This document shows, piece by piece, positions 55,684 to 55,712 of a stretch of 64,000 nt of DNA. A program made the position numbers and the translations under genes. Source of the stretch: Clostridia bacterium (GTDB taxonomy: Bacteria > Bacillota > Clostridia > Monoglobales > Monoglobaceae); contig JAZNBG010000035.1 in NCBI GenBank assembly GCA_045586925.1, positions 6,417-70,416 of the forward strand. Reading direction: 5' to 3'. The notes under the pieces are model-generated. The model saw only the letters and a list, made by a program, of their open reading frames with translations. It was not told the origin of the DNA and made no database searches. The number at the start of each line of letters is the position of its first letter. Position 1 is the first letter of the stretch.

Positions 55684-55712
55684 TTATGGTGTACCCTTGA
55701 CATTTTCCCCTG
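55684..55712. other. attR: element-side half-site (arm TTATGGTGT) plus CCTG core, then native spoVAD codons
   Basis: The 9-bp arm is the exact reverse complement of 19158-19166. Inner positions share TTGACA / TTAACA at the same offset. Native spoVAD codons resume at 55712. Confidence 0.7.

Follow-up and report, generated by a model that had tools for sequence, protein, structure and literature searches.

The transposases TnpX and TndX use a GA crossover dinucleotide. The attP of the LI/A118 integrase is pseudo-palindromic and ∼50 bp long, with 25-bp half-sites and a 2-bp crossover (PMC3783163; PDB 4KIS), and a model derived from the structure of the LI integrase-attP complex places the ZD motif at positions 16-24 in attP and at positions 11-19 in attB (Rutherford et al. 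2013, PMC3783163). The intervening elements known from sporulation genes use a large serine recombinase (LSR) plus a directionality factor (RDF) (PMC5595907, PMC5025042, PMC6957869), and they are found almost exclusively in genes of the mother cell, so that their excision spares the spore genome (PMC6957869). spoVAD, in contrast, depends on sigma-G and has its role in the forespore (PMC3738446). Our literature search found nothing that directly connects spoVAD with integrases or intervening elements; as far as we found, its use as an LSR target appears to be unreported, and the mechanism itself is ordinary. Here we analyze a stretch of 64,000 nucleotides from a Clostridia bacterium (contig JAZNBG010000035.1; hereafter, the window) in which spoVAD is split by an element that carries an LSR gene.

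An LSR-bearing element inside spoVAD

In the window, spoVAD lies on the forward strand in two pieces. Its 5′ fragment (18519-19141), which runs as far as the crossover, corresponds to positions 1-207 of the Pfam SpoVAD profile, and its 3′ fragment (55709-56104), which begins with the crossover and includes the stop codon, corresponds to positions 201-328. Joining 18519-19143 to 55713-56104 yields a 1017-nt ORF without an internal stop that encodes an intact 338-aa SpoVAD, with the junction at codon Pro208 within the SpoVAD motif NNMGAAMAPAAAD; the two nearest SpoVAD proteins that are intact show 94% and 92% identity. The inserted element (19142-55710, forward strand) is 36,569 bp long, its boundary being ambiguous within CC, and has a GC content of 0.30-0.36, compared with 0.40-0.43 in the flanks. 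The preliminary description had proposed a search for the same attB in the spoVAD of relatives, and the site was present and uninterrupted in two of them (L174 and L175), which have in common with the window the gene order malQ, spoVAC, spoVAD, spoVAE, miaB-like, ylbF and mutS. In L174, the left flank of the window ends at position 3312 and the right flank begins at position 3313, with one mismatch within 30 bp on either side.

The LSR gene (53898-55580, forward strand) encodes a 560-aa protein, and its ORF ends 104 bp before the P arm of attR. Matches to the Pfam Resolvase (PF00239, the catalytic domain, at residues 22-177), Recombinase (PF07508) and Zn_ribbon_recom (PF13408) domains are followed by a C-terminal tail with a weak match to DUF4368, below the Pfam cut-off. 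By sequence, the catalytic domain is nearest to that of TnpX (2MHC; E = 2.4e-26, with 43% identity in the Foldseek alignment); the two align over a conserved ALY.RLS motif, and S29 is invariant in 33 homologues. Over its full length, the protein is nearest by sequence to the SP-beta integrase SprA (9DXH) and then to the A118 integrase. An AlphaFold2 model (33 homologues, mean pLDDT of 70.8) contains catalytic alpha/beta and recombinase domains, beta-ribbon (zinc-ribbon) strands at residues 342-385 and, as expected of a coiled coil, long helices at residues 386-492 with block-mean pLDDT values of 75-93. When this model was searched with Foldseek, it matched the SprA, PhiC31, Bxb1 and LI integrases over its full length (E of about 1e-12 to 1e-23). 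An exact-sequence look-up returned no other contig with the window LSR.

Directly upstream of the LSR gene is a gene for a 68-aa DUF6870 protein (53583-53789, forward strand; PF21757, E = 3.5e-18). A homologue occupies the same position in 71 of the 80 related loci examined (the best 80 of 476 relatives, described below) and also in L017 and L176-L178. Our literature search found no mention of DUF6870. We infer that the protein is a candidate accessory or directionality factor. The LSR gene itself is preceded by a putative sigma-70-like promoter (TTGAAG-17-TATAAT with TG; 53814-53842, forward strand), which is a consensus match only, at 10 of 12 positions, and is invariant across eight related loci. 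The leader between the two genes (53790-53897) is conserved, and the promoter -10 lies inside a conserved inverted repeat, GGCGGCGGTATG...CATATCGCCGTC, beside the ribosome binding site; this repeat may be a regulatory hairpin. Inspection by eye of the regions upstream of the DUF6870 gene, the LSR gene and spoVAC gave no convincing match to a promoter for a sporulation sigma factor.

The island family and its cargo

A scan of one genome per species returned 476 relatives of the LSR, the best 80 of which (60-99% identity) were examined; all 80 are from gut or rumen Clostridia MAGs (Acutalibacteraceae, Oscillospiraceae, Congzhengia and others). In ∼48 of the 80 loci, spoVAD was broken at residues 205-210 within the 3-kb flank. 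This count comprises 46 loci found by tblastn and two more recognized from the P-arm junction alone, and the junctions in these genome loci were located by protein homology only. Nearly all of the loci with a broken spoVAD carried the arm TTTATGGTnnnnnCTTGACATnTnCC followed by CC, the weak exceptions being L064, L057 and L072. When metagenome contigs were scanned with a DNA pattern, ∼40 further junctions were added, and genomes and metagenomes together gave 82 unique attR junctions. In 53 pairs of loci, the integrases were at least 95% identical, whereas the SpoVAD C fragments beside them were 50-86% identical, with a median of 59%; one locus (L001) has a 99%-identical integrase next to a host SpoVAD C fragment that is 54% identical to that of the window. 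Because near-identical integrases occur in such divergent hosts, we conclude that the element is transferred among distantly related hosts and reaches the same codon in each. All 31 of the complete spoVAD C fragments beside such elements are still open. Two gut islands, GI153 of Faecalibacterium and GI175 of Roseburia, have been listed as "containing" SpoVAC, SpoVAD and SpoVAEb (Jiang et al. 2019, PMC6907783), and this apparent SpoVAD cargo may be an insertion at the spoVAD landing site.

The cargo of the window element was scanned with PHROGs, Pfam, NCBIfam and PADLOC, nearly every ORF of 80 aa or more being covered, and these scans revealed no genes for capsid, portal, tail or lysis proteins; the lone "terminase" match proved to be the FtsK ATPase of EssC. 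Since the closest viral integrase in IMG/VR is only 44% identical, and the gene content agrees, the idea of a prophage was dropped: the scans found no structural genes, and IMG/VR has no close relatives. The element is thus a non-phage island, and "attP" is used here for the attachment site of an integrative island. It carries a complete-looking T7SSb locus (32575-39445) with EssC, a YukD-like gene, three WXG100 genes and DUF4176; EssC has 1554 aa, an FHA domain and a TIGR03928 match of 1020 bits. Defence genes encode a PDC-S27 ATPase, a type I MTase with its S subunit, and Kiwa KwaA/KwaB. The element also carries TetR, SPFH, PP2C and beta-lactamase-like genes, two Ser/Thr kinase genes, a Gp49/HigB-like gene, a transglutaminase-like protein and YpsA, and its recombinases besides the LSR are a small serine recombinase and two tyrosine recombinases. 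The cargo scans found no relaxase in the window element.

Several arrangements within the cargo were observed in passing. The 7-kb stretch that holds the defence genes is bracketed by imperfect direct repeats of ∼255 bp (20832-21086 and 27850-28105; 80-91% identity) and adjoins the small serine recombinase gene (28234-28908), so that it looks like a cassette nested inside the island. A 25-nt inverted repeat (30486-30510 and 30748-30772; 96% complementary, arms 237 nt apart) directly follows one tyrosine recombinase gene (29629-30477) and precedes the TetR, SPFH and T7SSb genes; this repeat may be an invertible switch. After the T7SSb locus come PP2C and the two Ser/Thr kinase genes (41863-43653 and 43699-45585), which are paralogous, with 79% identity over 300-nt blocks.

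Relatives carry other genes around the same core. The L017 group has a MobA/MobL relaxase, next to the DUF6870-LSR pair, together with a HipA-like gene (L017, 699-2453); in L176 and L177, genes for cell-wall polysaccharide and ABC transporters occupy more than 10 kb downstream of the LSR gene; and L178 carries MFS transporter, PAP2 and GH98 genes. The constant module of the family is made up of attP, a DUF6870 gene of 68-106 aa and the LSR gene. In six loci (L006, L045-L047, L053 and L055), the integrase is near attL, which indicates that the module can have its cargo to the left or to the right.

Attachment sites and the position of the crossover

The only contiguous identity between the two ends of the element in the window is CCTG, at 19140-19143 in attL (...GCGATGGCA CCTG TAAG TGTTAA ACTA ACACCATAA GG...) and at 55709-55712 in attR (...AAAAATTTATGGTGT ACCC TTGACA TTTTCC CCTG CGGCGGC...). 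All arms are given on the forward strand. In attL, the host half or B arm (19119-19139), which spans the spoVAD codons N-M-G-A-A-M-A and contains the distal motif ATATGGGT at 19120-19127 (half-site positions 14-21), is followed by the crossover dinucleotide CC (19140-19141), which forms the first two bases of the Pro208 codon, and by the element half or P′ arm (19142-19166; TG TAAG TGTTAA ACTA ACACCATAA), with an inner motif TGTTA at 19148-19152 and a distal motif ACCATAA at 19160-19166. The TAA at 19164-19166, within the P′ arm, ends the truncated spoVAD N fragment. In attR, the element half or P arm (55684-55708; TTATGGTGT ACCC TTGACA TTTTCC) is followed by CC (55709-55710) and by the host half or B′ arm (55711-55731), which spans the spoVAD codons (P)-A-A-A-D-T-L and contains the distal motif ACCTT at 55724-55728 (half-site positions 15-19). 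As a separate observation, TTGACA in the P arm (55697-55702) equals the sigma-70 -35 consensus, and its TTG is an in-frame start of the spoVAD C-fragment ORF (55697-56104); TTGACA was considered as an outward promoter and dropped, as it has no -10 partner, and a ribosome binding site was likewise not seen.

When the element-side halves (19142-19166 and 55684-55708) are joined, the reconstructed attP is a 52-bp imperfect palindrome. The dyad claimed in the preliminary description was borne out in its components: the outer arms, TTATGGTGT (55684-55692) and ACACCATAA (19158-19166), are perfect 9-bp reverse complements, and the inner blocks, TTGACA (55697-55702) and TGTTAA (19148-19153; reverse complement TTAACA), lie at an equal offset, 4 bp inside the arms, and match at 5 of 6 positions. 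Its proposed centre needs a correction. Every possible centre of a 124-bp in-silico attP, made by joining the element-side halves, was scored, and the best dyad (17 of 28 matches) fell between the first and second C of CCTG, with 16 nt between CCTG and the outer arm on the left and 14 nt on the right. The axis is thus inside CCTG as described, but the palindrome is centred on CC, 1 bp left of the CCTG middle. The role of chance was estimated by joining element DNA at random and allowing nine centres: an inverted run of 9 bp or more without a mismatch arose with p = 0.0013, 17 or more of 28 dyad matches with p = 0.0021, and the two jointly with p = 0.00015. The description of the site as a serine-integrase-like attP of roughly 50 bp fits its 52 bp and its dyad, with the qualification that it is the attachment site of a non-phage island.

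Consensus half-sites of the family, read outward from the crossover base, are GGGAAAATGTCAAGnGnAnACCATAAA for P, CnGnnnnTGTTAnACTAACACCATA for P′, GTGCCATnGCnGCACCCATATT for B and CnGCnGCnnnnnnnACCAT for B′, and the consensus of the 82 unique attR junctions is aAAatTTATGGTnTaccCTTGACATtttCC / CC / nGCnGCnnnngacACcAT. In both halves of attP, the distal motif ACCATAA occupies positions 20-26 and the inner motif TGTCA/TGTTA positions 8-12. A profile of the distal motif scored best from start position 19 in P and P′ and from start position 14 in B and B′, so that in attB the motif is shifted inward by exactly 5 bp in both arms. In attB, the motif arises from conserved codons, namely N-M-G, where it is read on the reverse strand, and D-T-I/L, where it is read on the forward strand. 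ACCAT is found at the B′ positions in 54 of 81 junctions, and the B′ arm of the window, with ACCTT (D-T-L), matches it at four of five positions. An inner (RD) motif common to attP and attB was not seen. By analogy, the 5-bp shift matches the zinc-ribbon-motif geometry reported for the A118/LI integrase.

The preliminary description also held that CCTG contains a 2-bp crossover, which a relative allowed us to place at CC. L178 is an 8.4-kb element with both ends on one contig and the same att architecture as the window in the dyad test. Its attL (...ATGGCA CC CGATGA TGTTAA ACTA ACACCATAA) and attR (TTTATGGTGT TCCC TTGACA TTTTCC CC TGCTGCC) have CC alone in common, and joining them at CC rebuilds a 338-aa SpoVAD; the crossover would accordingly be CC rather than the whole of CCTG. 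Among the attR junctions, the Pro codon ends in T in 38, C in 26, G in 15 and A in 2, variation that shows its third base to be supplied by the host, and the attL bases after CC co-vary with the type of element (TGTAAG, CGAAAA or CGATGA). From the junction sequences, we infer that cleavage and strand exchange occur at CC within the invariant codon for Pro208, and that the extra TG of the window is a coincidence between attP (CCTG TAAG) and attB (CCT GCG). Orientation is identical in all 82 attR junctions and all attL junctions, as a non-palindromic CC would fix a single orientation.

We propose that attL and attR were, with high probability, made by the LSR encoded at 53898-55580, the likely catalyst of recombination between a 52-bp attP on a circular island and a ∼42-bp site in spoVAD. 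The inner motif of the island attP (TGTCA/TGTTA, positions 8-12) would be read by the recombinase domain of the LSR and the distal motif (ACCATAA, positions 20-26) by its zinc-ribbon domain, while the spoVAD attB would offer the distal motif 5 bp nearer the centre on both sides. Strand exchange would then occur at the CC of the Pro208 codon, and the integrated island would split spoVAD, with the N fragment stopping in the P′ arm. Precise reversal would restore spoVAD, and excision probably continues, because mobility is evident; the adjacent DUF6870 protein may assist the LSR.

Three other accounts of the junctions were weighed against this proposal. The overlap might be the whole of CCTG, or the crossover CT or TG, as all four bases are common to attL and attR of the window; this we consider very unlikely, given that L178 has CCCG in attL and CCTG in attR, that the third base of attR tracks host codon usage and the attL bases after CC track the element type, and that the dyad axis falls between the two C's. 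A tyrosine recombinase might have made the insertion with the LSR as a passenger, and two genes are at hand for this role, one for a 286-aa protein just upstream of the DUF6870-LSR pair (52675-53535) and the other at 29629-30477. The overlap region of tyrosine recombinases is 6-8 bp, for which an attL/attR identity of 4 bp in the window and 2 bp in L178 is too short; moreover, no more than 2 of the 80 related loci (L001 and L003) carry the 286-aa gene, the LSR, arms and target travel together in related loci, and the 5-bp shift of the distal motif is an LSR-specific geometry. Together these points make a tyrosine recombinase highly improbable as the agent. The dyad might finally be a chance resemblance, or the split gene an assembly chimera, and the arms are indeed short (9 bp) and AT-rich. 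However, the chance estimate is ∼1e-3 to 1.5e-4, the arms are repeated at 82 junctions that come independently from various assemblies and hosts, the empty site matches exactly and GC falls inside the element, so that the probability left to this explanation is negligible. The family junctions, empty site and GC drop thus uphold the earlier rejection of a chance split or misassembly, and the recombinase-mediated insertion asserted with it is in keeping with the intact LSR gene beside attR, the exact empty sites and the repetition of the arms.

Some junctions depart from the common pattern. About 11 metagenome contigs have a family-type P arm joined to DNA other than spoVAD, which means that target specificity is not absolute; loci with joins of this kind (L116, L122, L137, L143, L147, L152, L156, L170, L171, L172 and L043) represent secondary targets or rearrangements. 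Some of these joins are to intergenic DNA, that of L143 is to a cas5-like gene, and L147, L152 and L172 have a TTCTCCATAATTTTCC context in common. Searches for an intact attP, as expected of an excised circle, returned none in IMG/VR with the exact arms of the window and none in IMG/VR or in JGI/ENA metagenome contigs with the family consensus. In IMG/VR, a scan with the P arm gave no match, and a scan with the P′ arm gave 35, all of them due to chance and lacking both a P arm and spoVAD on the upstream side. L165, with ACACCATAA at attP spacing, was considered as an intact attP and rejected, its right side being a truncated SGNH-hydrolase ORF; at 150-205, its P arm and CC are joined to this ORF on the opposite strand, an arrangement that is neither a clean attP nor a normal attR, and L165 was kept out of the evidence. 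In L057 (6686-6745) and L072 (4373-4432), an inverted and decayed attL-like remnant lies ∼97 bp left of attR; in it, a P-like arm abuts the B arm that codes for NMGAAMG, the latter in reverse complement. An extra P′-like half-site, CAGGTAGA(T/G)GTTAAGGAT(A/G)CACCATAA, is found in L005 (∼5435-5465), L007 (∼1700-1730) and L165 (1-30), in the interval that separates the LSR gene from attR and 120-150 bp to the left of the P arm; it is absent from the window element.

Consequences for spoVAD and comparison with known systems

The reading that we prefer, and hold tentatively, is that of a mobilisable element whose LSR serves as a transposase of the TnpX/TndX type, excising and inserting without a directionality factor, and for which spoVAD is a preferred but dispensable landing site; carriers would keep a broken spoVAD until the element leaves. 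This reading draws on the resemblance of the catalytic domain to TnpX (E = 2.4e-26) and the weak DUF4368 tail, on the MobA/MobL relaxase beside the DUF6870-LSR pair in relatives, and on cargo that differs wholly between relatives (T7SS and defence, polysaccharide synthesis, or MFS/PAP2/GH98). The failure to find phage genes, the absence of the family from IMG/VR and the minority of junctions in other DNA are also consistent with it. It sits less well with the window element, in which no relaxase was detected, and with a target far more specific than is usual for a transposon: instead of a GA crossover and several targets, the family has CC and, in the great majority of junctions, one spoVAD codon. 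Another explanation is that excision during sporulation rebuilds spoVAD, as for skin and SP-beta, and that carriers make normal spores. The site does lie inside a sporulation gene, precise reversal restores the ORF for the 338-aa SpoVAD, the complete C fragments are open in 31 of 31 cases, a conserved small DUF6870 gene sits beside the LSR gene, as RDF genes often do, and the known intervening elements use an LSR plus RDF (PMC5595907, PMC5025042, PMC6957869). We nevertheless regard this explanation as unlikely. According to the literature, spoVAD is a forespore gene, whereas almost all known elements are in mother-cell genes (PMC3738446, PMC6957869), so that excision would have to occur in the forespore and be followed by loss of the circle or re-integration. 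Near-identical integrases in very different hosts, moreover, point to recent arrival, which explains the open C fragments equally well, and these therefore prove little; no sporulation-type promoter was identified upstream of the genes inspected, and the LSR promoter is sigma-70-like.

Taken together, a forespore target and the mother-cell rule imply either that spoVAD stays broken until the element leaves, as in the preferred reading, or that excision is linked to the forespore or to stress. In the latter case, the island family would be a reversible switch at spoVAD, in which the integrated state blocks dipicolinic-acid loading and DUF6870-assisted excision (possibly in the forespore or under stress) restores it, an idea that we consider slightly more doubtful than sporulation excision of the skin type. 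If true, no intervening-element system would have been described before in a gene of the germ line (forespore), and the transfer of T7SS, defence or polysaccharide cargo would be tied to spore quality and to transmission from host to host.

In Clostridia of the gut and rumen, mobile islands have landed repeatedly in spoVAD, a core forespore gene. The scoring of sporulation from genomes may be affected, as a split spoVAD reads as "lost", and so may the spore quality and transmission of carriers. The family also provides a new attP/attB pair, with a 52-bp attP, an attB of ∼42 bp, a CC crossover and arm motifs from 82 natural junctions, and an LSR clade that works across very divergent Clostridia, which would be useful for engineering gut anaerobes that are hard to manipulate. 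In addition, natural variation in both arms lends support to the model in which a 5-bp shift of the zinc-ribbon motif discriminates attP from attB.

Among described systems, skin (SpoIVCA, in sigK), skinCd (CD1231/CD1234), SP-beta (SprA/SprB, in spsM) and gin (GirC/GirX, in gerE) are, like the window element, LSR elements inside a sporulation gene, with a short direct identity and imperfect inverted repeats at their ends, and their excision, like that considered here, would rebuild the ORF. SprA of SP-beta is the best full-length structural match to the window LSR, and gin is, like the window element, non-phage and equipped with several recombinases (PMC5595907). The differences are that the window target is a forespore sigma-G gene, whereas the known targets are mother-cell genes; that the partner here is a DUF6870 protein, for which an RDF role is a candidate only, and developmental excision is hypothetical; and that the family extends across many gut Clostridia, in contrast to the few Bacillus and Clostridium strains that carry the known elements. 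TnpX and TndX (Tn4451 and Tn5397; PDB 2MHC) have the closest catalytic domain and a weakly matching DUF4368-type tail, and they resemble the present system also in the Mob relaxase found in relatives of the window LSR and in non-phage cargo. They differ from it in that here the crossover is CC, one target codon is highly preferred and no relaxase was found in the window element. The A118/LI integrase, although only ∼20% identical to the window LSR, with the motif TTTAGTATC where the present family has ACCATAA, and although it belongs to a phage that targets comK rather than to an island that targets spoVAD, matches the C-terminal domain fold of the LSR model and has in common with the window family both the architecture of attP and the 5-bp shift of the distal motif in attB.
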